Below are positions 7,176 through 42,661 of a DNA stretch of 64,000 bases, piece by piece (the stretch's first letter is position 1; each line of letters opens with the position of its first letter). The stretch lies in assembly GCA_965230915.1 (NCBI GenBank), contig OZ246395.1, forward strand, positions 536,935-600,934. The letters run 5' to 3'. A model generated the notes under the pieces. The model was not told the origin of the DNA. It did not search any database and was given only the letters and a program-made list of their open reading frames with translations. Source of the DNA: an uncultured Candidatus Saccharibacteria bacterium. GTDB taxonomy: Bacteria > Patescibacteriota > WWE3 > 2-01-FULL-39-13. The position numbers were made by a program, and so were the translations under genes.

Positions 7176-8246
7176 ATGAGATTTGGGATCCTAATTTCCA
7201 GCCTTATACTTGTACTAGTATTCATCTGCCTCTATTTATGGTGGAACTATAGAAATTCGTCGTCAAGTCTACCGTCTTCACAGGAAATTTCTGAGAATAT
7301 TCATGAATCATTAAATATTAATGAAAGTATGGCCGAACCAGCCGCACTTGATATCGAATATATGCGTAGTCAGAACTACCCAGGAAGCGATTTAGTCGTT
7401 GAAGAAACGCTATCTCCCGGTTCAAATTACACGAGGCAAGTTGTTTCTTACCAATCTGACGGATTAAAAATTTACGCTCTTTTGACCATTCCAAACGGCG
7501 AAAAACCGGAAACAGGTTGGCCGGTAATCGTTTTCAACCATGGGTATATTCCTCCAGCCCAATATAGAACAACAGAAAGATATATTGCTTACACAGATGC
7601 ATTCTCACGCAATGGTTATATTCTAATAAGACCTGATTACCGAGGACACGGAAGTTCTGAGGGTTCTCCTGAAGGCGCTTATTATTCTCCGGCATACACA
7701 CGTGATGTTTTAAATGCCTTAGCATCGGTTAAAAAGCATCCTGATGCCGATGTTAATAGAATTGGTATGTGGGGGCATTCAATGGGAGGAAGTATTACTT
7801 TGAGATCTATGGTTATTTCAAAAGACATTAAGGCTGGAGTAATTTGGGCTGGAGTTGTAGCCTCGTATGAAGACATGGCTAATAATTGGAATCGAACCCG
7901 ACCATTTACTCCTTCTCCTCTAGAACAACAAACAAGAAGACCCACGCGACAAGAGTTAATAGATAAATATGGAGACTTTTCTGCAAACCCTGAATTTTGG
8001 CAATCAATTTCGCCAATTTATCATGTTAAGGAAGTATCTGGTCCAATACAAATTCATCACGGAACCGCAGATGCAGAAGTTCCAGTGCTATTTAGCGAAA
8101 GGCTAGATGAAGCTATGAAAGCTGCAGGCAAAACCGATGAGCTATATGTATATGAAGGAGACGATCATAATTTATCGCGCAATTTGAGCACAGCACTAAA
8201 GAGATCTGTCGAATTTTTTGATAAATACGTAAAAAACTCCCAATAA
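7176..8246 (+). CDS. alpha/beta-hydrolase, S9 peptidase/dienelactone-hydrolase-like, membrane-anchored
   Basis: N-terminal TM helix, nucleophile elbow GHSMGG (GxSxG), and downstream D and H (HHGTADAEV) consistent with a Ser-Asp-His triad. Confidence 0.75.
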   Translation: MRFGILISSLILVLVFICLYLWWNYRNSSSSLPSSQEISENIHESLNINESMAEPAALDIEYMRSQNYPGSDLVVEETLSPGSNYTRQVVSYQSDGLKIYALLTIPNGEKPETGWPVIVFNHGYIPPAQYRTTERYIAYTDAFSRNGYILIRPDYRGHGSSEGSPEGAYYSPAYTRDVLNALASVKKHPDADVNRIGMWGHSMGGSITLRSMVISKDIKAGVIWAGVVASYEDMANNWNRTRPFTPSPLEQQTRRPTRQELIDKYGDFSANPEFWQSISPIYHVKEVSGPIQIHHGTADAEVPVLFSERLDEAMKAAGKTDELYVYEGDDHNLSRNLSTALKRSVEFFDKYVKNSQ

Positions 8247-8324
8247 TTTGACAGATTAATACAAAACCTATAATTTTACACCAGAGACCGTTTGTGAAGT
8301 TCATTCAATAATAAAGAGGATCAT

Positions 8325-8648
8325 ATGGAATGCTGCTGTTTATCAGTTGCACTCGTGGTATTAGCCCTATTTCCTAAGTTTCAAGGGCTACTAAGATGTC
8401 TGTTCCCCAGAATAAATGGTTGCGGAACCTGTCTTATACTCATGGCGTTTGTTCTGATAGGAATGGTAACCTTCACTTGGATTACAGGCGCTGGCTCTTA
8501 TGCAACGAGCGGAATTGCCAATCTGAGAAATTTCACAATTGGAGATTTCTCAGCTCCGGATGTTGCCCCTGGACTGTTTTTAGTGGGGATCTTTAAGTGG
8601 CTGGTTGATTTTTTGATGCAATTTATCAACGGGACACCGATGTCGTGA
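8325..8648 (+). CDS. hypothetical small hydrophobic protein
   Basis: Track ORF in a locally GC-richer patch, Cys-rich N-terminus and TM segments. Followed by a GAGCCGC palindromic element. Confidence 0.3.
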   Translation: MECCCLSVALVVLALFPKFQGLLRCLFPRINGCGTCLILMAFVLIGMVTFTWITGAGSYATSGIANLRNFTIGDFSAPDVAPGLFLVGIFKWLVDFLMQFINGTPMS

Positions 8649-8660
8649 ATATGGTCCTTT

Positions 8661-8697
8661 GAGCCGCCTTCAATTATAACTATATAAAAGGCGGCTC
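8661..8697. repeat. GAGCCGC-type palindromic element, copy 1 (10-bp stem, 17-nt loop)
   Basis: gagccgcctt (8661-8670) pairs with aaggcggctc (8688-8697). No U-run follows, so it is not a classical intrinsic terminator. Confidence 0.5.
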
Positions 8698-8789
8698 CTG
8701 ATCCCCCCCTGCAATATAGACCTATAGACATTTTTGTGATAACTTATAGGCAAGAAAAAGGCTGATAACTACAAAGAAAGGAACTAATC

Positions 8790-9050
8790 TTGAACACACT
8801 TCTCTTAAGTTGTGTAGTTACAATAGCTTTTTGCGCGGCATTCCTACTTATTTTAGTAGTGATCGTACGACTCAGCAGGTTCGAATTCGTTCGAGGATTC
8901 TTCTTCGGAGGACTTCTCGGGGTGTTTGGTAATATTTTCTTTTTCTGGCTGGCAAGTTTTATATGGCCGGAATGGCAAATTTACTATTTTATTAAAGGCA
9001 TTTGGTCAATCGCCTTAGCTTTTTTGTTCGGCGGTACCGGCCTTAACTGA
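8790..9050 (+). CDS. hypothetical small membrane protein (TTG start)
   Basis: 86 aa, about 3 TM helices, AAGGAA 8 nt upstream of the TTG. Followed by the second GAGCCGC palindromic element. Confidence 0.35.
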   Translation: MNTLLLSCVVTIAFCAAFLLILVVIVRLSRFEFVRGFFFGGLLGVFGNIFFFWLASFIWPEWQIYYFIKGIWSIALAFLFGGTGLN

Positions 9051-9094
9051 GAGCCGCTTTGCTTATAAGTAATTCATATAAAGCAAAGCGGCTC
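9051..9094. repeat. GAGCCGC-type palindromic element, copy 2 (12-bp stem, 20-nt loop)
   Basis: gagccgctttgc (9051-9062) pairs with gcaaagcggctc (9083-9094). The stem sequence is related to copy 1. Confidence 0.5.
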
Positions 9095-9117
9095 CAAATT
9101 TCTTATAATTAAACAGA

Positions 9118-10095
9118 ATGAAAACACAAAACTTTTACAAAAAATTCGTAGAGCTCTCGTCGAAAACCGGTATTCCAGTTAAAAATATAATCGATCTATT
9201 TTTAATAATCGGCGATAAAACAGAAATAGATAACCTAGATTTATCAACCCTAACAGGACTTTCAAAAACTTCGATTTCATTAATAGAAAAGGAATTTTAT
9301 TCTTTATTCAAACCAAAATCTAATAAGACCTCTTTGACAGAAAATGGATATAGGGTTTACATGTATTTAAGAGACTTAATATCGAAGGATAAGCTAGGCG
9401 ATCTAAACTTTGCAAATTCTATAATCGAAAATTCACTCCATGAAAAATATTCAAATGACAGGCCAGCTGTTGAACGCGATTTAGACCAAATTCTAGCAAC
9501 ATCAGAAACTGTCCAAAAACGCTCATATTTAATGGATTTACTCGCCGATATAAGAGATAAACGAGTTTTATTTTTAGGCGACGATGACTTCACCTCAATA
9601 GAAGTTGCATCGCTAGGTACGGCAGAAAAAATTACTGTAATTGATATTGATACAAGAATATTAAACACCATAAAAAAAGTTTCTGACACAGAAAAGCTAA
9701 ATATCGAAACGATAAAGTACGACGCCAAAGAATCTATCGGGAAAGAATTGTATAGCAAGTACGATGTAGTTTTTACAGATCCACCCTACACAGCTGCAGG
9801 CTTTGAGCTATTTTTATCAAGAGCAATTGATGTTTTAGACAAAAATAATAAGTCAGCTCGAATTTACATATGTTTTGGACATAGCGATTTATCAAAAGAG
9901 AGATTTATTCCAATTATTAAAACAATCGCGGATTGTGGCCTTTCTATAAGATATACATTTAGCAAACTTAATAAATATAAGGGTGCTGAATCTATTGGAA
10001 GCAACTCAGACTTATATATCTGTGAAGTTACTTCTAAAACTACTCCTACAATAAAAGGAAAATACAAAGAGAATATTTATACCAATGAATATTAA
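9118..10095 (+). CDS. DUF43/BpsA-like aminopropyltransferase (putative branched-chain polyamine synthase) with MTase-like fold
   Basis: 325 aa. LFLGDDDFTSIEVA matches the GDDD motif recalled for N4-bis(aminopropyl)spermidine synthase. VVFTDPPYT is a DPPY-type motif. A winged-helix-like N-terminus precedes a Rossmann-like C-terminus. Family assignment is from memory. Confidence 0.55.
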   Translation: MKTQNFYKKFVELSSKTGIPVKNIIDLFLIIGDKTEIDNLDLSTLTGLSKTSISLIEKEFYSLFKPKSNKTSLTENGYRVYMYLRDLISKDKLGDLNFANSIIENSLHEKYSNDRPAVERDLDQILATSETVQKRSYLMDLLADIRDKRVLFLGDDDFTSIEVASLGTAEKITVIDIDTRILNTIKKVSDTEKLNIETIKYDAKESIGKELYSKYDVVFTDPPYTAAGFELFLSRAIDVLDKNNKSARIYICFGHSDLSKERFIPIIKTIADCGLSIRYTFSKLNKYKGAESIGSNSDLYICEVTSKTTPTIKGKYKENIYTNEY

Positions 10096-10475
10096 TAATC
10101 TAGGACTTTAGTCTTAATTTCTGCTTTAGGATATGCTTCTTTCAATAATTTTATAAGGACTTCTAGGTCTGCTTCCGGAGAACAAGTTATAAGATCAAAA
10201 TGAACAAATTCATATTCCGGCCATGTATGGATAGCCAAATGCGATGCCGATAAAATATATACTATAGACAGTCCTCCTCCTGGAAATTCATGAAAACCAT
10301 CTTTAATGACTGTAACGTCAATTTTAGCCAATATATCTCTAAAAACCGCATCAATTGCTTCATATTTAAGTTCGTCTGCAGTAAGGTGATCGATTTCACC
10401 CACCAGATGTACATAAAATGGTCTATTCTCTGTATTCATGGGCATTATATTATGGGTTATACTGGGGAAAGTCAA
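10092..10475 (-). CDS. speH: S-adenosylmethionine decarboxylase proenzyme-like (SpeH/class 1b pyruvoyl decarboxylase)
   Basis: FHEFPGGGLSIVYILSASHLAIHTWPEYEFVHFDLITCS aligns with the SpeH core F.GP.GG.TGV.LLSESH..IHTWPE....D.FTC. The usual Glu before the processing Ser is Ala here (LSASH). The true start may be one of the internal Met (MPMN...). Confidence 0.8.
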   Translation of the reverse strand: MTFPSITHNIMPMNTENRPFYVHLVGEIDHLTADELKYEAIDAVFRDILAKIDVTVIKDGFHEFPGGGLSIVYILSASHLAIHTWPEYEFVHFDLITCSPEADLEVLIKLLKEAYPKAEIKTKVLDY

Positions 10476-10480
10476 ACGAA

Positions 10481-11863
10481 CTAGTTCGGCGTAATCCCTG
10501 AGTCGTCTTCATCAAATGAGTCGTAATATGGCTGACTTGTATCTGGTCCTCCAAATCCTGACGAATCTTCTTCCATCATGCCTTCGTATTGATACTGTTG
10601 CATCATGGCTTTTGTATATTCTTCAATAATAACTTCTATAGGAGTTGCATTTTCGGGTTCTGCAACCTGAAAATCTTCGTTAAATCTTGAAGCATTAATA
10701 ACCGACGCAACATCTACATATTCGTCTTGAGAACCAGCTGCTTGAGTATAGACATTAGGAAAGTATTGAATTGTGCTTGCTCCTAAAACCTGTGAAGGCA
10801 CGCTAATATCATCTGTACGCATTCTAAATGAAATCATAGATCGAACTGTATGCATTGTGTCTTTTGCTATGTAAGTATTAATTTTTAAGTTTTCAAATGT
10901 TTGGGAATATCCCGAAGTCATCGCTAAATCTTCGGTGTATGATTCTGGGTCAACCGCTTTGGCGATTTCGTTAACAAAGTCTTTGTATTCCTGGCTCGTT
11001 AGCTCAAGCGACATTTTATAAACAGGTGTTCCATCCAAATCTTCTTCGGTAACAACGATTTTATCAATTACATCTGAGTTCAAAAGAGCGGCTTTTACTT
11101 TTTCGTATGTGTCATCGTCACGGCCATCTTTGTCTTCTTCGAGTAAACTGCGCGCGTCTGATTCTAAACTCTTTAATTCATAAGAAATCCATTTATTCAT
11201 TAATATATCTAGAGACATTCCGGTTCCTGAAGCAAGACCCTTAATAACCGCTGGAATTTCATTTATCTTAAAAAATAATGTGTCATTAACAGCTACAAAA
11301 TTTGCGTCAAACTCTGGTGACATCTGAAAATGAATTTCTGCTTCTGGGTTATTTTCATCATGAAAATCTATTGGGCCTGTTATTTTTAAGTCAAAATTGT
11401 TACCAAGACCAGGAATTGCTTCCGGGCCGTTTCCATTAAAAGCAATTGAAGCATCAATGTAAGCACTCTTTAAATCTTTTTGAGCGTCCATTGATTTATA
11501 AATCAAAAACTCTGCTGTTTTTGGGGTATAAGGTAGTTCCTGAACGGCAAAGGAAATTTTTCTTTGCAATTCGTCATTATTAATATCTACCTTTCCGTAT
11601 GCAACTAAGGCTGCAAACGCAGTTGATCCGACTAGTAAAATTAAAATTATAAAAAGTGACAATAAAAGAATAAGTGGACCTTTTGATTTATGCGGAACAT
11701 TTATGTTTTCTACAACCTCTGAATTAGTTGGAGTCGTTGGTGGAACTTGTGAAAAAGATGGGATTGAACTTGGTGAACTGGTAGATGATTCAACTGGATT
11801 TATTTTATCCATAGGATCTACAGGAATATTTGCAGGTTGGTCAGGGTTTAATGATGTATCCAT
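10481..11863 (-). CDS. membrane-anchored hypothetical protein (Pro/Ser/Thr-rich N-term, one TM, large ectodomain, acidic C-term)
   Basis: 460 aa. TM helix LILLLSLFIILILLVGSTAFAALVA. C-terminal DEDDSGITPN tail. Confidence 0.6.
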   Translation of the reverse strand: MDTSLNPDQPANIPVDPMDKINPVESSTSSPSSIPSFSQVPPTTPTNSEVVENINVPHKSKGPLILLLSLFIILILLVGSTAFAALVAYGKVDINNDELQRKISFAVQELPYTPKTAEFLIYKSMDAQKDLKSAYIDASIAFNGNGPEAIPGLGNNFDLKITGPIDFHDENNPEAEIHFQMSPEFDANFVAVNDTLFFKINEIPAVIKGLASGTGMSLDILMNKWISYELKSLESDARSLLEEDKDGRDDDTYEKVKAALLNSDVIDKIVVTEEDLDGTPVYKMSLELTSQEYKDFVNEIAKAVDPESYTEDLAMTSGYSQTFENLKINTYIAKDTMHTVRSMISFRMRTDDISVPSQVLGASTIQYFPNVYTQAAGSQDEYVDVASVINASRFNEDFQVAEPENATPIEVIIEEYTKAMMQQYQYEGMMEEDSSGFGGPDTSQPYYDSFDEDDSGITPN

Positions 11864-11916
11864 TTAAATCGGAATCTAGCCTTTTATGTAAGACCTAAGA
11901 ATATTATAATATTAAA

Positions 11917-12342
11917 ATGATACAAACTTCAATAAACTCTTTAGAAGAGCTGAGTGAATTTGCTAAAAGGCTAATTAATGAAATAAAACCCGGTAGTGTT
12001 ACATTCTTAAATGGAGAAATGGGCGCAGGAAAAACCACATTCGTTCAAGCGTTTGCAAAGGAATTAGGCTTAAAATCAACTATTAAATCACCGACTTTTG
12101 TAATTCATAATGAATATGATGATGTTGTCCACCACATTGATTTGTATCGCTTAAATAATAAATCTGAAATCAAAGAATTAAAATTGTCATCGATAAAAGA
12201 TGATTCTTATGTCTTTATAGAATGGGCCAGCAAATTTAACGAAGAATTAATCGAAATGTTTAAAGAAAAGCATAAATATGAAATTGAAATCGAGGTTACA
12301 GGCGAAAATTCCCGCCAAGTTATTTTTAGAGAAATAGAATGA
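11917..12342 (+). CDS. tsaE: tRNA threonylcarbamoyladenosine biosynthesis protein TsaE
   Basis: 141 aa. P-loop GEMGAGKTTF and the YjeE/TsaE pattern SPTF.I...Y......HHIDLYRL. Confidence 0.85.
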   Translation: MIQTSINSLEELSEFAKRLINEIKPGSVTFLNGEMGAGKTTFVQAFAKELGLKSTIKSPTFVIHNEYDDVVHHIDLYRLNNKSEIKELKLSSIKDDSYVFIEWASKFNEELIEMFKEKHKYEIEIEVTGENSRQVIFREIE

Positions 12343-26325: not shown

Positions 26326-29265
26326 TTATTCTATGCCGTGCAGATATGGAAAGAATGTGAACGACTTCTCGGGTTCATTTGGCTCGCAATTCAGGTCAGC
26401 GAGACGAGGATATTGATGAACCCAATATTTATCGCCCTCCAAAACTACCGTATCGCCAGCGCTATCCGCAATAACAAGAACAACCCCACCAGGAACCGCC
26501 GACCCAACGATGGTATAGTCGATACCCTCGACAGTTGGCGTCAATACAATGGCGAATGGATCTTCGCAAGTCGGATCAGCAAACAGCGGTGGTGCAGTCT
26601 CTACAACTGTGGGCTGAACGCCACAAACCGTGTGGTCGCCCAAATCGATAACCTGAGGCGAGTAGTCACTCGGCAAAGTATAAGTCGGAGCGTTAGCTAC
26701 GGCCAATACAACGGCGATGTTTGCTGTCGGATTTTCCGGGTACACCGAATAACTGATCTGATCAGTATCGTCGGGGACCTCAACCAAACCGACTTCGTTA
26801 CATGCCCCTGGCTCGATTACATCGAACAATGCCAATTTGGGCACCACAACAGTAGGCTTGAAAGTGCAATCAGGCGCCGCCGGGTAAGTATGACTCCATT
26901 GCGTATCACCTGTAAGAGTGAAAGCATTCGGATCAACCGATTCGCGCAACTCTGCACTAACAGTGACCGACTTGCTAGGTTCAACTTCACCGACATACGA
27001 ATAGCGAATGAAATCGCTATTATCGAAATTGATAGAGGCATCAACCTCGCAAGTCGGATCAACAAACTCAGGCGCAACCGTTTCGACTTCAATCGGTGGC
27101 ACAGAACAATCCGGGGCAACACTGAAATCATGAATCCACGTTGACGATCCAACAATCTCAAAGAAAGTCGGGTCGACAGAATTGCGCAATTCAGCGGTCA
27201 CAGTGACGCGCTCGCCTGCAGCAACCGAACCATCTGTGTCGTACTTGATAAAATCGTCTTCCGGAGTGATTACATCGGCGACAACAGAACAAGTTTCTTC
27301 AACAAACGTCGGTGCAGTTGCTGTTAACTGAGTCGGTTCGACAGTGCAATCGGGCGCTTCATCGAATGTGTGAGACCAAAGCTTAGGTTCCATAAGCGTA
27401 TAGCTTTCAGAATCCACCGATTGTCGCAATTGTGCTCCAACTTCGACGAACTGGCCTGCTGAAACCGTACCGGTAACTACATAAGACACAAAATCAGTGT
27501 CAGATGTAACAACCTGGGCCGGCGTTTCGCATGTCTGTTCTTCGAAAACTGGCGCTTCTGCCATCAGTTCGATCGGATCTACGCATTCAACAAAATCACC
27601 CAAATACACGGCAAACTGCCAATCTGGGTTGGTTGAAACAAAACCATCTTCGACTTCGTGTGTTACAACAACAAACCCTTCGATCGGATCGACAGGATCC
27701 ACCAAATAGGTAATGTGTTCTGTCGTGGCCGGAGTTACCGAGCCTTCAACACCACACACACCTTCAGGAATTATCGTAACTTGCGGATTCTCTGGCATCA
27801 CACTCACAGGACAATTGAGAGATTCAACCGTCACAAAAGTGTGGGACCAACTGATCTCTCCAACAGCCATCTTATTCTTGATGCTGGCTTTGAGACTCGC
27901 ATTCACTTCAACGGTACTACCTGGCGTTGTTTCTCCCATAACTTCGTAAACGAAGTCGTTGTCGGGGAAAGAAACCGACGCACTCTGCATGGAACATGTC
28001 GGTTCATTGAATGTCGGGTCGTCAGGTTCGACCGAGTCGGGTGCGAATGTGTATTTTACACACCCAATGGTCAAGTCCTGTATGATTCCGCCACCAAAAA
28101 CGCCACTTCCCAAAGCAAAGCCGACGGCCAAAGCATGAGCATCTGGATATGCATCCAAGATCTTATACATCTCGCCTTGGACTGGGTAACCCTGAGATGG
28201 GTAACCAATATTCGGCAACCCCGGGAAAGTAGTAGTGTTAATGGAATTACTCCACCAAACATCACCATAATAGCCGGGTTCATACGCCATATAGCCATCG
28301 AAAGTGCCATTGTTGTCGAGATCAACCTTAAGCTGAAGTCCTGCAGGGGGAGTAACCGAATAACCGCTGATAGCAGCATAAGTAAGTGACAAAGTTCCGG
28401 TAGTCCCGATTTCCTTCAAATGGAAGTTAATCGGGTAATAACCCTTTACCTTGTCCTGACCTGTAGTGCCATTTGTATGGATCAACAAACCTTGCGGCGA
28501 TGCCCCATTTTGCGCGACAAACTCGTAATAGCCCGACGTGCCGGTCTCTGTGTCGAGATCCCAACCCTGTCGGTTGCTAAAAGTTATCGGCTCAGCGTTA
28601 GTCACCTCGTCGCAGGCCAGAGGCTCAGAGACGAAATAGGTTGTCTTGCAGTCGAATGTGATCGACTTAAGCACTGAAGTGCCAGGCTGATATGATCCGT
28701 AAGAAACTCCATATGCCACAACCATGAGATTAGGATTGGCAGTAAGAATTTCATCAAGATCAACCTGATGCCGTGTCTCGTAAGGCTCGGCAGTTTGATT
28801 TGCGGCATTCGGAACGCCCAGATCTGTGCCTGTTCGCCACCAATAGCCGTCAAACACGCCCTTATTGTCGGGATCATTGTAAACCTGCTCCCAAACAAGA
28901 GTTGCACCAGGATCACCATCAGACCACCCAGTTACCGCAAGTTGATATGTCGCGGTACCGGTACGATCAAAATCGAGCGAGTCAATTTCAGAAAGAGGTA
29001 CATTGACCTCTTTCATCAAAAACACTTTCGACAGATTCTGCGGGTTCACCATCTCCAAGCCGTTAGGCGTGAACATGTACGAACCTTCAAATGTTCCGTT
29101 GTAATTGTTACTTACAACCCAGCCATCCAAAGCATAGGGTGTAACAATTACCTCAGAGTCTTCGCAGATTGCATCTCCCGGAAAGACCGCCTGCGCACTC
29201 CCATAGGACAAAACATTCATGAAAAGCGCGCATACCAAAATCCCCAATACCATCCTAAAACGCAT
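26326..29265 (-). CDS. large secreted Cys-containing tandem-repeat protein (adhesin-like), GC-rich
   Basis: Start placed at MRFRMVLGILVCALFMNVLSYGSAQA (signal peptide, AAAGGA RBS 8 nt upstream). The track ORF extends to 29328. At least four ~85-aa repeats share the pattern ...(T/Q)C(E/S)...DF..Y...G.......V.V.A.L..S.D......(W)SHT(F/Y)..APDC(T/S). Markedly GC-rich relative to the flanks. Confidence 0.75.
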   Translation of the reverse strand: MRFRMVLGILVCALFMNVLSYGSAQAVFPGDAICEDSEVIVTPYALDGWVVSNNYNGTFEGSYMFTPNGLEMVNPQNLSKVFLMKEVNVPLSEIDSLDFDRTGTATYQLAVTGWSDGDPGATLVWEQVYNDPDNKGVFDGYWWRTGTDLGVPNAANQTAEPYETRHQVDLDEILTANPNLMVVAYGVSYGSYQPGTSVLKSITFDCKTTYFVSEPLACDEVTNAEPITFSNRQGWDLDTETGTSGYYEFVAQNGASPQGLLIHTNGTTGQDKVKGYYPINFHLKEIGTTGTLSLTYAAISGYSVTPPAGLQLKVDLDNNGTFDGYMAYEPGYYGDVWWSNSINTTTFPGLPNIGYPSQGYPVQGEMYKILDAYPDAHALAVGFALGSGVFGGGIIQDLTIGCVKYTFAPDSVEPDDPTFNEPTCSMQSASVSFPDNDFVYEVMGETTPGSTVEVNASLKASIKNKMAVGEISWSHTFVTVESLNCPVSVMPENPQVTIIPEGVCGVEGSVTPATTEHITYLVDPVDPIEGFVVVTHEVEDGFVSTNPDWQFAVYLGDFVECVDPIELMAEAPVFEEQTCETPAQVVTSDTDFVSYVVTGTVSAGQFVEVGAQLRQSVDSESYTLMEPKLWSHTFDEAPDCTVEPTQLTATAPTFVEETCSVVADVITPEDDFIKYDTDGSVAAGERVTVTAELRNSVDPTFFEIVGSSTWIHDFSVAPDCSVPPIEVETVAPEFVDPTCEVDASINFDNSDFIRYSYVGEVEPSKSVTVSAELRESVDPNAFTLTGDTQWSHTYPAAPDCTFKPTVVVPKLALFDVIEPGACNEVGLVEVPDDTDQISYSVYPENPTANIAVVLAVANAPTYTLPSDYSPQVIDLGDHTVCGVQPTVVETAPPLFADPTCEDPFAIVLTPTVEGIDYTIVGSAVPGGVVLVIADSAGDTVVLEGDKYWVHQYPRLADLNCEPNEPEKSFTFFPYLHGIE

Positions 29266-29421
29266 AGCAAGATCCTTTCTGATCTTCAGTGAAAACGTAG
29301 TTTCGGCAACATCCGTCACTATCCCCATTCAGGAATTGATATCCGTCTTGTGTGAATACCAACTAGTAAGTCTTCGTCGACTTGCTAATAGTCTGCCTTA
29401 AAATCTCGCGTTTTTGCGAAA

Positions 29422-41092: not shown

Positions 41093-42661
41093 TTAGGCAA
41101 TTTTTAATTTACTAAAATCTAATGGATTATCCTGTCGAAATTCCAAATGTAACTTTACCGCTGTTTCTGCACGTTCGAATTGACGCCCCATATAAAAGGC
41201 ATTTCCTAAAGTTGAAACTGCTAAATCAGTATCAATCATAAAACTTAATTTGCGTGCTGCATTTTGTTCTTTACCGTCAATTTCCCACGATTTTAATTCA
41301 ACATTTCCGTCAGGAGAAATTAATTTCACTTTAATCATATCTTCTACAGTTTCGACAATTAAATTCCCACGTGGATCCCATTCGCAATATCCGCCATAGT
41401 TACTTAAAAGTTTTTCCATATCTGCGAAGTTATGTTCATATACATGTGCCATATTCGAAATTGTTATCATTGACCCCATTTCAACCATTAATTCATCTGC
41501 AATATTTTTTTGCAATTTACGAAGGGCAAATGCATTTAGCGGCCAAGCATTATACATATCATTGCTTCTAAAATAACAAGTCATCGTGAGTTTGCCTTGA
41601 TATATTTGGCATTGAATTAAAAATAAACATGGAATTTTTTTCGAAGGTCGTTGTGGGAAAATGTCCGTAAAAGTATTCCCTAAAAATGCCATCGCACCTT
41701 TGTCGTATGGAAAATTTTTTAATTTGCGAACGATCGCAACGGAAACCTGGTCAATACCTCCACCTTTATTAAAATATTTTTGAAAGCGATCAATTTTTAG
41801 CCACGGATAAATTTCTTTTAATTCTTTAATTTCTTTGTGAGCATAATTAAAAAGTCTTTCGCCGTAAGTGTAGTCTTCAGTATGTGGATCAGGATCAAAA
41901 AATCCTTTTATATAGTTATCCAGATCATCTTTATTAAATGGCATATATTCCGGGATATTCCACTTATCAGGGTTTTCTTCAGTTATAACTGCAGTCAAAT
42001 TTAAAATCTCTTTTAATTTATTTGAGGTGTCAGAAACATAATTTATAACAGGTTCGGATTCTAGTCCAAACATAGACACATGTTTTAAAATTGAAAGATA
42101 AGCTTCAGCTATTGTAGTTCGGCGAATTTTTATTAAGTCAATTTCAGATGGGTAAGTAGAAACTTGAGGCTTTGGAGGATCAGGGAATGTTTCGGAATCA
42201 GACCAAAGTTTTTCAAATTTGATTAATTCGATAGTAGTTTTTAGTTGAACCAATTTATCCGGACCACGCAAATCAATTAATTTAACATTTTCACGAAATT
42301 TATTTATGGCTTCTAGCGGAATTTCTTTTTCGATTTCGGCAGTATCATCACCGACAACTTTGTAATCTTCGGTGATTCCATCTCGCATTAATTTTACAAA
42401 TGCTTCACCTGATTCCATCAAATCATTTCCGCATAAATATATTGTATTTATAAATGGATTCGCCAAAACATTTCTTATTAAATAGTTGATTCCTTTTTTT
42501 GTGTAGAGTTGGCCGAGAATAGAATAATTTTCTTTTTCAACTAATCGTTCGATTGCTTCTTTTGGAGTCCATAAACATGCGATAGCGACTGATGATTCCA
42601 AGTTAGAAATTGTTAAGCGGTCTTTAAAATAAATTGGCCAAACTTCTGGTGCGTCACTCAT
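41093..42661 (-). CDS. thymidylate-synthase-family enzyme (ThyA-like core) with ~180-aa N-terminal extension of unknown function
   Basis: C-terminal ~340 aa carry TS motifs: IDQVSVAIVRKLKNFPYDKG, the catalytic-Cys region IPCLFLIQCQIYQGKLT..YFRSNDMYNAWPLNAFALRKL, and ISNMAHVYEHN. The N-terminal 180 aa lack DHFR motifs. Confidence 0.7.
   Translation of the reverse strand: MSDAPEVWPIYFKDRLTISNLESSVAIACLWTPKEAIERLVEKENYSILGQLYTKKGINYLIRNVLANPFINTIYLCGNDLMESGEAFVKLMRDGITEDYKVVGDDTAEIEKEIPLEAINKFRENVKLIDLRGPDKLVQLKTTIELIKFEKLWSDSETFPDPPKPQVSTYPSEIDLIKIRRTTIAEAYLSILKHVSMFGLESEPVINYVSDTSNKLKEILNLTAVITEENPDKWNIPEYMPFNKDDLDNYIKGFFDPDPHTEDYTYGERLFNYAHKEIKELKEIYPWLKIDRFQKYFNKGGGIDQVSVAIVRKLKNFPYDKGAMAFLGNTFTDIFPQRPSKKIPCLFLIQCQIYQGKLTMTCYFRSNDMYNAWPLNAFALRKLQKNIADELMVEMGSMITISNMAHVYEHNFADMEKLLSNYGGYCEWDPRGNLIVETVEDMIKVKLISPDGNVELKSWEIDGKEQNAARKLSFMIDTDLAVSTLGNAFYMGRQFERAETAVKLHLEFRQDNPLDFSKLKIA

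Follow-up and report, generated by a model that had tools for sequence, protein, structure and literature searches.

A 64-kb stretch of DNA, hereafter the window (contig OZ246395.1, positions 536,935 to 600,934), from an uncultured bacterium of the candidate phyla radiation (CPR), WWE3 lineage, carries a convergent gene pair that probably encodes a two-enzyme aminopropyl-transfer module dependent on decarboxylated S-adenosylmethionine (dcSAM), and with it a route to polyamines that does not involve SpeE. One gene encodes a 325-residue aminopropyltransferase-like protein of the BpsA family, the other a 115-residue homologue of the class-1b S-adenosylmethionine decarboxylases (AdoMetDC), and the case for a joint function is built from family and fold assignments, conserved catalytic residues, and the adjacency and repeated fusion of the two genes among relatives. 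A large share of the diversity of bacteria falls to the CPR, whose members have a minimal metabolism and with few exceptions are uncultured; to our knowledge, the polyamines they make, and the routes by which they make them, are essentially unknown. Literature searches turned up no account of the transferase subfamily reported here or of its coupling or fusion to AdoMetDC, and none of polyamine synthesis by these CPR lineages.

The two open reading frames (ORFs) of the initial annotation, the motifs GDDDFTS (G154–S160) and DPPY (D221–Y224) in the 325-residue product of the plus-strand ORF, and the 4-nt overlap of the two genes are all present as it described them. Both exact proteins were found on a 945-kb contig, and their closest relatives are metagenome-assembled genomes (MAGs) of Patescibacteria/CPR. 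The product of the minus-strand ORF contains the sequence ...YILSASHLAIHTWPEY..., and the gene is real; the start given initially, TTG 10475 (the maximal ORF of 127 residues), is less likely than ATG 10439, which is most likely the true start (115 residues, MNTENRPFY...) because the public gene call has 115 residues and the equivalent Met is the first residue of every close homologue. A pseudogene reading of one or both genes was rejected, both ORFs being intact with every conserved residue present. Among the ~45 ORFs scanned in the window there was no SpeE, SpeA/B/C, agmatinase or polyamine transporter, and no second SpeD. The absence of a classical spermidine synthase nearby, remarked on at the outset, thus holds within the window, which represents about 7% of the 945-kb genome.

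By both sequence and fold, the 325-residue protein is a member of the PF01861/BpsA family, an assignment far beyond chance. Pfam BpsA_C (PF01861) matched with E 4.3e-43 and 147.8 bits against a cut-off of 27, the match spanning just model positions 8–191 of 243, and every Pfam methyltransferase model scored more than 100 bits lower. The RsmD-type model Cons_hypoth95 (PF03602) reached 28.8 bits, slightly over its cut-off of 24, but 119 bits under BpsA_C. An RsmD-type rRNA methyltransferase was rejected on the NCBIfam model TIGR00095 (20.4 bits, cut-off 117.5) and on the loop, which reads GDDD instead of GxGxG; a SpeE-type spermidine/spermine synthase was rejected on PF01564 (19.3 against 22.9 bits) and TIGR00417 (16.5 against 249.55). 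The DUF43/BpsA membership first proposed is therefore upheld, and no rRNA or tRNA methyltransferase model, the alternative raised alongside it, outscored the BpsA family.

A sequence search of the PDB returned as sole matches BpsA from Thermococcus kodakarensis (Tk-BpsA; 5xnc, 1.3e-18), its Pyrococcus orthologue (Pf-BpsA) and BpsA from Thermus thermophilus (Tt-BpsA), with the match to 5xnc improving to 5.7e-36 using a profile of 36 relatives. The AlphaFold2 (AF2) model has a predicted local distance difference test score (pLDDT) of 89.7 and a predicted TM-score of 0.90, and in a Foldseek search of the PDB its nine best hits were all BpsA (E 1e-21 to 1e-18), aligned over ~350 columns that include the N-terminal domain, at 17–21% identity. 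The next fold was that of the METTL5-type N6-methyladenosine (m6A) methyltransferases, with E 4e-11. The winged-helix-like N-terminal domain is basic, the catalytic domain acidic (isoelectric point, pI, 5.4), and a related long form gave a weak MarR/HTH_24 match in the region equivalent to the former; the charge analysis is ambiguous between a polycation and a nucleic-acid acceptor. The family assignment itself is not new, because public pipelines (NCBI, UniProt) already label relatives of the two proteins “bis-aminopropyl spermidine synthase family protein” and “S-adenosylmethionine decarboxylase”.

Comparison of the active site with characterised BpsA made use of an alignment of 36 family members for conservation, and a profile-to-PDB alignment with Tk-BpsA for residue equivalences. 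According to a 2026 review, D159 and D160 of the BpsA GDDD motif position the aminopropyl group of dcSAM; D225, E259, Y290 and Y316 (Tk numbering) activate the acceptor; and a flexible acidic C-terminal cluster (E339, D342, D343, E344 and E345 in Tk, “DEE” in Tt) serves as carrier of the aminopropyl group in ping-pong catalysis, C-terminal swap experiments having established that this tail sets product specificity and ratios. The positioning loop is retained in the CPR proteins, with G154, D155, D157 and S160 invariant and D156 at least 90% conserved, as are D123 (Tk D126), D221, D257 and Y287, all invariant or nearly so. For Tk Y316, the profile alignment stops at Tk residue 291, and the invariant Y321 of the terminal IYT is a candidate equivalent. 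Where the CPR proteins have DPPY, characterised BpsAs have DPPE or DPVE (TDPPET in Tk, TDPVEG in Tt), and the CPR proteins have invariant blocks of their own, CYGNSDxAKERF, FNRYxGAESIGS and the terminal IYT.

The tail, in contrast, is missing. The CPR proteins stop about four residues past the invariant IYT and are, on balance, neutral to basic over their last 25 residues (three acidic and four basic residues in the window protein). A C-terminal acidic cluster is absent from all 36 aligned members, in whose last 40 residues any seven-residue span holds at most three acidic residues (at most two in the window protein), versus five of seven at E339–E345 of Tk-BpsA. Judged from the alignment, the CPR proteins are a distinct subfamily of PF01861 without the defining mechanistic feature of BpsA proper. 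With no such tail there is no basis for predicting a branched product, and the branched or long-chain polyamine of the initial annotation is not sustained: the element that specifies carriage and product is absent from the whole CPR subfamily.

The smaller protein matched PF02675 with E 7e-21 and 75 bits against a cut-off of 25, far beyond chance, and its best PDB sequence matches were the AdoMetDCs of Thermotoga maritima (Tm; 1tlu, 9.5e-12) and Aquifex aeolicus. Its AF2 model (pLDDT 91.1) aligned to T. maritima 1vr7 with a TM-score of 0.81 and a root-mean-square deviation of 1.9 Å, in agreement with the class-1b identity first given to it, and spermine synthase (3C6K) was among its structural neighbours. 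Roles in self-processing and catalysis have been described for Ser63, His68 and Cys83 of the T. maritima enzyme (Li et al. 2023, J Biol Chem 299:105005), to which S66, H71 and C86 correspond; P74, in HTWPE, is the AdoMetDC-type Pro. All 31 partner proteins compared have S66, H67, T72, P74, E75 and C86, and at least 90% of them have H71.

Whether such a protein acts on S-adenosylmethionine has to be asked with care, as Li et al. (2023) found that many SpeD homologues in genomes without SpeE, CPR included, are ornithine or arginine decarboxylases (ODC and ADC). Their ODC clade (SpeDC) is marked by four diagnostic residues, Gln, Thr, Phe and Tyr, within the validated core QLIETS/LxSGHFAN...YxDxFSC (Supplementary Fig. 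S5; the slash marks the cleavage site). A SpeDC identity was rejected here: the core YILSA/SHLAIHTWPEY...HFDLITC has Y, A, T-W and H in those places, and none of the four diagnostic residues. The window protein matched four validated AdoMetDCs at E 5e-12 to 4e-11, and two validated ODC domains went unmatched in BLAST and hidden Markov model (HMM) searches, permissive thresholds included; in a search with the profile of the partner proteins, the best 120 matches were all CPR partners. In the text of Li et al. (2023), one Pro (“gamma” in their Fig. 8) is described as fully conserved in bona fide AdoMetDC and not in arginine decarboxylases, and from that description we take P74 to be this residue. 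The sequence comparisons and the predicted model support a class-1b AdoMetDC homologue that resembles validated AdoMetDCs, and not an ODC offshoot; an arginine decarboxylase keeps a small share of the probability, because the ADC group (SpeDA) has no positive sequence signature.

The pairing of the two genes extends well beyond the window. A pattern scan that took one genome from each GTDB species turned up 236 encoded relatives, and 80 species-level loci (numbered with the prefix L) were analysed, adjacency being called with custom HMMs on six-frame ORFs. These loci come mostly from Woese-, Ames-, Davies-, Shapiro-, Chisholm-, Blackburn- and Roizmanbacteria and WWE3, in the main CPR of the Microgenomates type, together with Bathyarchaeota; several sit in bins whose taxonomic label is evidently wrong, and many bear record names that we take to be typical of aquifer, groundwater and digester MAGs. 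An AdoMet_dc homologue adjoins the BpsA-like gene at 67 of the 80 loci (84%), so the pair, first described as unusual, is the rule in this lineage. It lies immediately downstream on the same strand in 60 cases, usually overlapping the stop codon; upstream in two (L048, L058); in convergent orientation in two (L008, L044); and in three it is fused to the transferase in a single ORF of ~415–445 residues (L056, 5857-7158; L062, 3642-4898; L078, 5878-7203). The convergent layout of the window is also kept in two relatives with 62% (L086) and 48% (L087) identity, the latter with an identical 4-nt overlap and the former with the genes 7 nt apart.

At the sequence level, the fused ORFs run from ...KIYTYE straight into KNKM..FPFYNHWE... 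with no stop between, always in the order transferase–decarboxylase, and the decarboxylase keeps its catalytic residues. An exhaustive search of 1.84 billion cluster representatives returned 1,450 family members at E ≤1e-3 and 841 at ≤1e-10; a C-terminal decarboxylase domain occurs in 14 of the top 150 representatives at 50% identity, and in two of these proteins, P0310 and P0369, Pfam matched both PF01861 and PF02675, confirming the fusion. Conserved adjacency in several layouts, combined with recurrent fusion, is strong genomic evidence that the two proteins work together, and because an AdoMetDC homologue is paired with a GDDD-type transferase, the supply and use of dcSAM is the simplest explanation. 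The idea of a dcSAM producer and consumer, put forward initially from the window, is thereby strongly reinforced.

The substrates, product and kinetic mechanism that we infer for the module would be as follows. The 115-residue proenzyme would cleave itself between Ala65 and Ser66, converting Ser66 to the pyruvoyl cofactor, and the processed enzyme, to judge by its conserved residues and fold, would convert S-adenosylmethionine to dcSAM. The 325-residue enzyme would then bind dcSAM, with the GDDD loop (D155–D157) holding the aminopropyl end and excluding carboxylated S-adenosylmethionine. By homology to Tk-BpsA, the aminopropyl group would be moved to an amine bound in an acidic and aromatic pocket (D123, D221-P-P-Y224, D257 and Y287), with release of methylthioadenosine. 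Direct transfer in a SpeE-like ternary complex seems more likely than the ping-pong relay of characterised BpsA, and is to be expected because the subfamily has no C-terminal acidic carrier tail. A di- or triamine is the likeliest acceptor: putrescine, agmatine, cadaverine or spermidine, either scavenged or made elsewhere. The product need not be branched. For the lineage, the module would then be the principal way, independent of SpeE, of making spermidine-like or longer polyamines.

Several observations weigh against this interpretation. The subfamily is without the only experimentally mapped aminopropyl-carrier element of its family; the DPPY motif is typical of methyltransferases acting on exocyclic amines; and the median pI across the family, 8.65, is on the basic side. 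The decarboxylase falls just short of the AdoMetDC equivalog TIGR03330 (B. subtilis-type; 70.3 bits, cut-off 75.65). Nor is the partner always intact: about 12 of the 80 loci are without a decarboxylase within 2–6 kb; those of L002, L003, L004 and L027 are truncated, an N-terminal half followed by stop codons beside intact BpsA-like genes; that of L007 is split into two ORFs; that of L005 (8962-9315) has Pro at His68; and those of L043 and L045 have lost Cys83 (Gly instead), with SH changed to SS. With several partners decayed or absent, the aminopropyltransferase-like gene can evidently persist without an intact neighbour. Lastly, SpeDA is poorly separable from AdoMetDC by sequence (Li et al. 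2023).

The foremost alternative is a genuine BpsA, converting spermidine to N4-aminopropylspermidine and N4-bis(aminopropyl)spermidine. Tk-, Pf- and Tt-BpsA are the best matches in sequence and structure, GDDD is kept along with counterparts of D126, D225, E259 and Y290, and database names of relatives point the same way, yet this reading is unlikely, given that the mapped carrier and product-ratio element is missing, the Pfam match is partial, DPPY stands for DPPE, and identity to BpsA structures is low. The window also contains no spermidine source, and the record titles suggest CPR hosts from groundwater and digesters, whereas BpsA and branched polyamines have been described as confined to thermophiles. 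Quite unlikely is a neofunctionalised SpeD, of the SpeDA or ODC type, that would supply the acceptor (agmatine or putrescine) while dcSAM came from elsewhere. The precedent of SpeE-less genomes, CPR among them, the similarity of SpeDA to AdoMetDC and the missed equivalog all speak for it, as does the residue before the cleavage site, which is Ala or Gln here and usually Glu. Neither subtype fits well, however: the protein has none of the ODC-diagnostic residues and no detectable similarity to the two validated ODC domains, and the Pro whose loss is a tendency of SpeDA is invariant in this group. Fusion to a GDDD enzyme is most simply read as dcSAM supply, and a second SpeD in a genome of less than 1 Mb would be unlikely. 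The “anomalous SpeD” rule of Li et al. (2023) does not apply, since that paper, in which BpsA is mentioned zero times, never considered a BpsA-family partner.

Two further readings dispense with a free polyamine. In one, the tail-less DPPY subfamily would aminopropylate a non-polyamine amine, forming a new class of dcSAM-dependent modification, which we consider very unlikely; the acceptor could be a 7-deazaguanine intermediate (preQ1, for example), an exocyclic amino group in RNA or DNA, or the side chain of a protein, and the basic N-terminal domain could do the targeting. A preQ1-type acceptor is proposed because the only other recurrent neighbours, the preQ0-pathway genes FolE, QueD, QueE and QueC, lie directly downstream at 7–10 of the 80 loci, a neighbourhood that could reflect lineage synteny or a functional link. 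In the other, the 325-residue protein would be an N-methyltransferase dependent on S-adenosylmethionine, or would transfer an aminopropyl group to the base of a nucleic acid or an amine of a protein. Consistent with it are the invariant DPPY, the weak matches to Cons_hypoth95 and to N6-adenine methyltransferase models, the m6A methyltransferases METTL5 and PH1948 as next-best folds, the basic winged-helix-like N-terminal domain and family pI, and the same preQ0 genes. It is nevertheless highly improbable. The lead of BpsA_C over every methyltransferase model is large and TIGR00095 is far under its cut-off, the acidic GDDD in place of GxGxG speaks against binding of the S-adenosylmethionine carboxylate, and a methyltransferase would leave the tight coupling and fusion with an AdoMetDC homologue unexplained. 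Moreover, characterised BpsAs share the two-domain architecture, and the invariant acidic site residues suit a cationic acceptor.

The proposed dcSAM-dependent module can be set beside several known systems. With BpsA (EC 2.5.1.128; T. kodakarensis TK1691, 5XNC/5XNF/5XNH; T. thermophilus, 6J27) the larger protein shares PF01861, the two-domain fold of an N-terminal helical and a Rossmann domain, the GDDD loop and the D126, D225, E259 (as Asp) and Y290 equivalents; it is ~25 residues shorter C-terminally, without the acidic carrier/lid cluster, and has DPPY in place of DPPE or DPVE. The subfamily is found in low-GC CPR and Bathyarchaeota MAGs, BpsA in thermophiles, and it is coupled or fused to AdoMetDC, the gene-neighbour survey covering loci of the subfamily rather than canonical bpsA. 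The smaller protein has the fold, the Ser/His/Cys set, the HTWPE with its Pro, and a similar size to class-1b AdoMetDC (T. maritima TM0655, 1TLU/1VR7; B. subtilis SpeD), from which it differs in having Ala instead of Glu before the cleavage Ser, in its shortfall of ~5 bits at TIGR03330, and in a partner that is a BpsA-family enzyme, not SpeE, to which it is fused in sister lineages.

Like SpeDA and SpeDC (Li et al. 2023), the window decarboxylase is a small SpeD homologue from a CPR bacterium, in a genome region without SpeE; it is without the four SpeDC residues and keeps the Pro, and whereas those proteins cluster with HSS, SpeY, SpeB or CASDH/CASDC, it is clustered or fused with a dcSAM-type transferase. 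The logic of linking a dcSAM producer, or its fold, to the consumer is that of SpeD–SpeE operons and of eukaryotic spermine synthase (3C6K, an AdoMetDC-like N-domain joined to an aminopropyltransferase). The transferase here belongs to PF01861, not PF01564, and unlike spermine synthase, the fusions place the transferase first and retain the catalytic residues of the decarboxylase.

If correct, the module would be a compact, widely conserved candidate polyamine route in Microgenomates-type CPR and Bathyarchaeota, with a BpsA-family enzyme in the place of SpeE. It touches on the view that BpsA and its products are confined to thermophiles; on the view that the acidic C-terminal carrier is integral to catalysis in the BpsA family, for which the subfamily offers a natural test of the need for a tail; and on the view that a SpeD homologue without SpeE signals an ornithine or arginine decarboxylase. 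Both proteins are small and soluble-looking, and provide a directly testable entry to CPR polyamine metabolism, although the result is unlikely to greatly surprise a polyamine specialist. The features are listed in Table 1.

Table 1. Features of the gene pair (window coordinates unless a locus number is given) and of the corresponding loci in relatives.
Feature	Position	Strand	Basis or remark
BpsA-family (PF01861) aminopropyltransferase-like gene, tail-less CPR subfamily, 325 aa	9118..10095	+	Pfam, PDB, AF2/Foldseek
N-terminal helical, winged-helix-like domain, aa 1-108, basic (pI 8.8)	9118..9441	+	AF2 secondary structure, Foldseek alignment
GDDDFTS, G154-S160, predicted dcSAM aminopropyl-positioning loop in place of methyltransferase GxGxG	9577..9597	+	Aligned to Tk-BpsA G157-D160
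DPPY, D221-Y224; D221 = Tk-BpsA D225	9778..9789	+	Invariant in family (36 aligned)
Predicted acceptor-site residues D257 (= Tk E259) and Y287 (= Tk Y290), in CYGxSDxxKERF...FNxY block	9886..9978	+	Profile-to-PDB alignment, both invariant
C-terminal segment, aa 304-325, ending in invariant IYT, net neutral/basic	10027..10092	+	Alignment, charge counts
Stop-codon overlap, exactly 4 nt	10092..10095	both	Palindrome TTAA common to the convergent stops
Class-1b AdoMetDC homologue (SpeH/SpeD-like), 115 aa	10092..10439	-	PF02675, PDB, AF2/Foldseek; maximal ORF to 10475
C86, equivalent of T. maritima catalytic Cys83	10182..10184	-	Alignment; invariant in partners
Core SASHLAIHTWPEY, predicted self-cleavage between A65 and S66; S66 (nt 10244-10242) putative pyruvoyl precursor	10212..10250	-	Alignment to T. 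maritima ISE/SHLTIHTWPEY
preQ0 genes downstream of pair	L005 9325-10462; L020 7242-7847; L022 9204-10340; L039 7903-9173; and others
Thr-variant partners	L057, L063, L065, L069, L070, L072-L077, L079, L080, L084, L085		ORFs downstream of BpsA-like genes

Variation among relatives takes several forms. In the fused proteins, self-cleavage would leave the beta-chain of the decarboxylase covalently joined to the transferase. The Bathyarchaeota partners have Thr in place of the pyruvoyl-precursor Ser (LILAE-T-HISIHTWPEY) and keep His68, Cys83 and the Pro; such a Thr would yield an alpha-ketobutyryl group instead of pyruvoyl, or no processing. At these Thr-variant loci, the BpsA-like genes encode ~200–250 additional C-terminal residues, and among long BpsA-like forms extra C-terminal domains include a GNAT acetyltransferase (P0304), LPG_synthase_C with a zinc ribbon (P0330) and a RrnaAD-like methyltransferase (P0271). 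The pair also occurs at two sites of one complete genome, CP055308.1 (Ca. Woesebacteria Ch104a, 802 kb), at ~453–466 kb and at the record end, 796–802 kb (L019 and L042), with identical decarboxylase core sequence, which may reflect a recent duplication or an assembly repeat.

A promoter and terminator scan of 8200–12000 gave fewer sites than in shuffled sequence, for which reason a -35/-10-like site just upstream of the decarboxylase ATG (10475-10447, minus strand) is only a lead. Between an 86-residue small ORF and the start of the BpsA-like gene lies a perfect 14-bp inverted repeat (GAGCCGCTTTGCTT ... AAGCAAAGCGGCTC; 9052-9096, plus strand), followed by TATAAT at 9104-9109, just 8 nt ahead of the ATG. 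Together these could be a terminator and a promoter whose transcript would have a very short leader; for want of a T-tract, the repeat was passed over by the consensus terminator scan.

The gene upstream of the decarboxylase (10481-11863, minus strand) encodes a 460-residue protein that belongs to no Pfam family, is rich in Pro and Ser at its N-terminus and has a single predicted membrane helix. The gene ends 41 nt from the decarboxylase ATG; given this short distance, the two may be co-transcribed. L086 and L087 have other genes at this position. A gene for an S9/S15-type alpha/beta-hydrolase that carries a membrane anchor at its N-terminus (7176-8246, plus strand) precedes the BpsA-like gene, as it does in the relative with 62% identity (L086, 1351-2439), and in the window ~870 nt with two small membrane-like ORFs (8325-8648 and 8790-9050) are inserted between hydrolase and BpsA-like gene.

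Elsewhere, the GC content of the window is 32–41% except for one island (0.44–0.48, flanks 0.32–0.37), which contains a 1000-residue ORF without a Pfam family (26326-29328, minus strand) and, across this region, no rRNA or other Rfam match. In a 522-residue protein (41093-42661, minus strand), an unusual architecture joins an MtrA-like region (PF04208) at the N-terminus to a thymidylate-synthase-like domain (PF00303) at the C-terminus.

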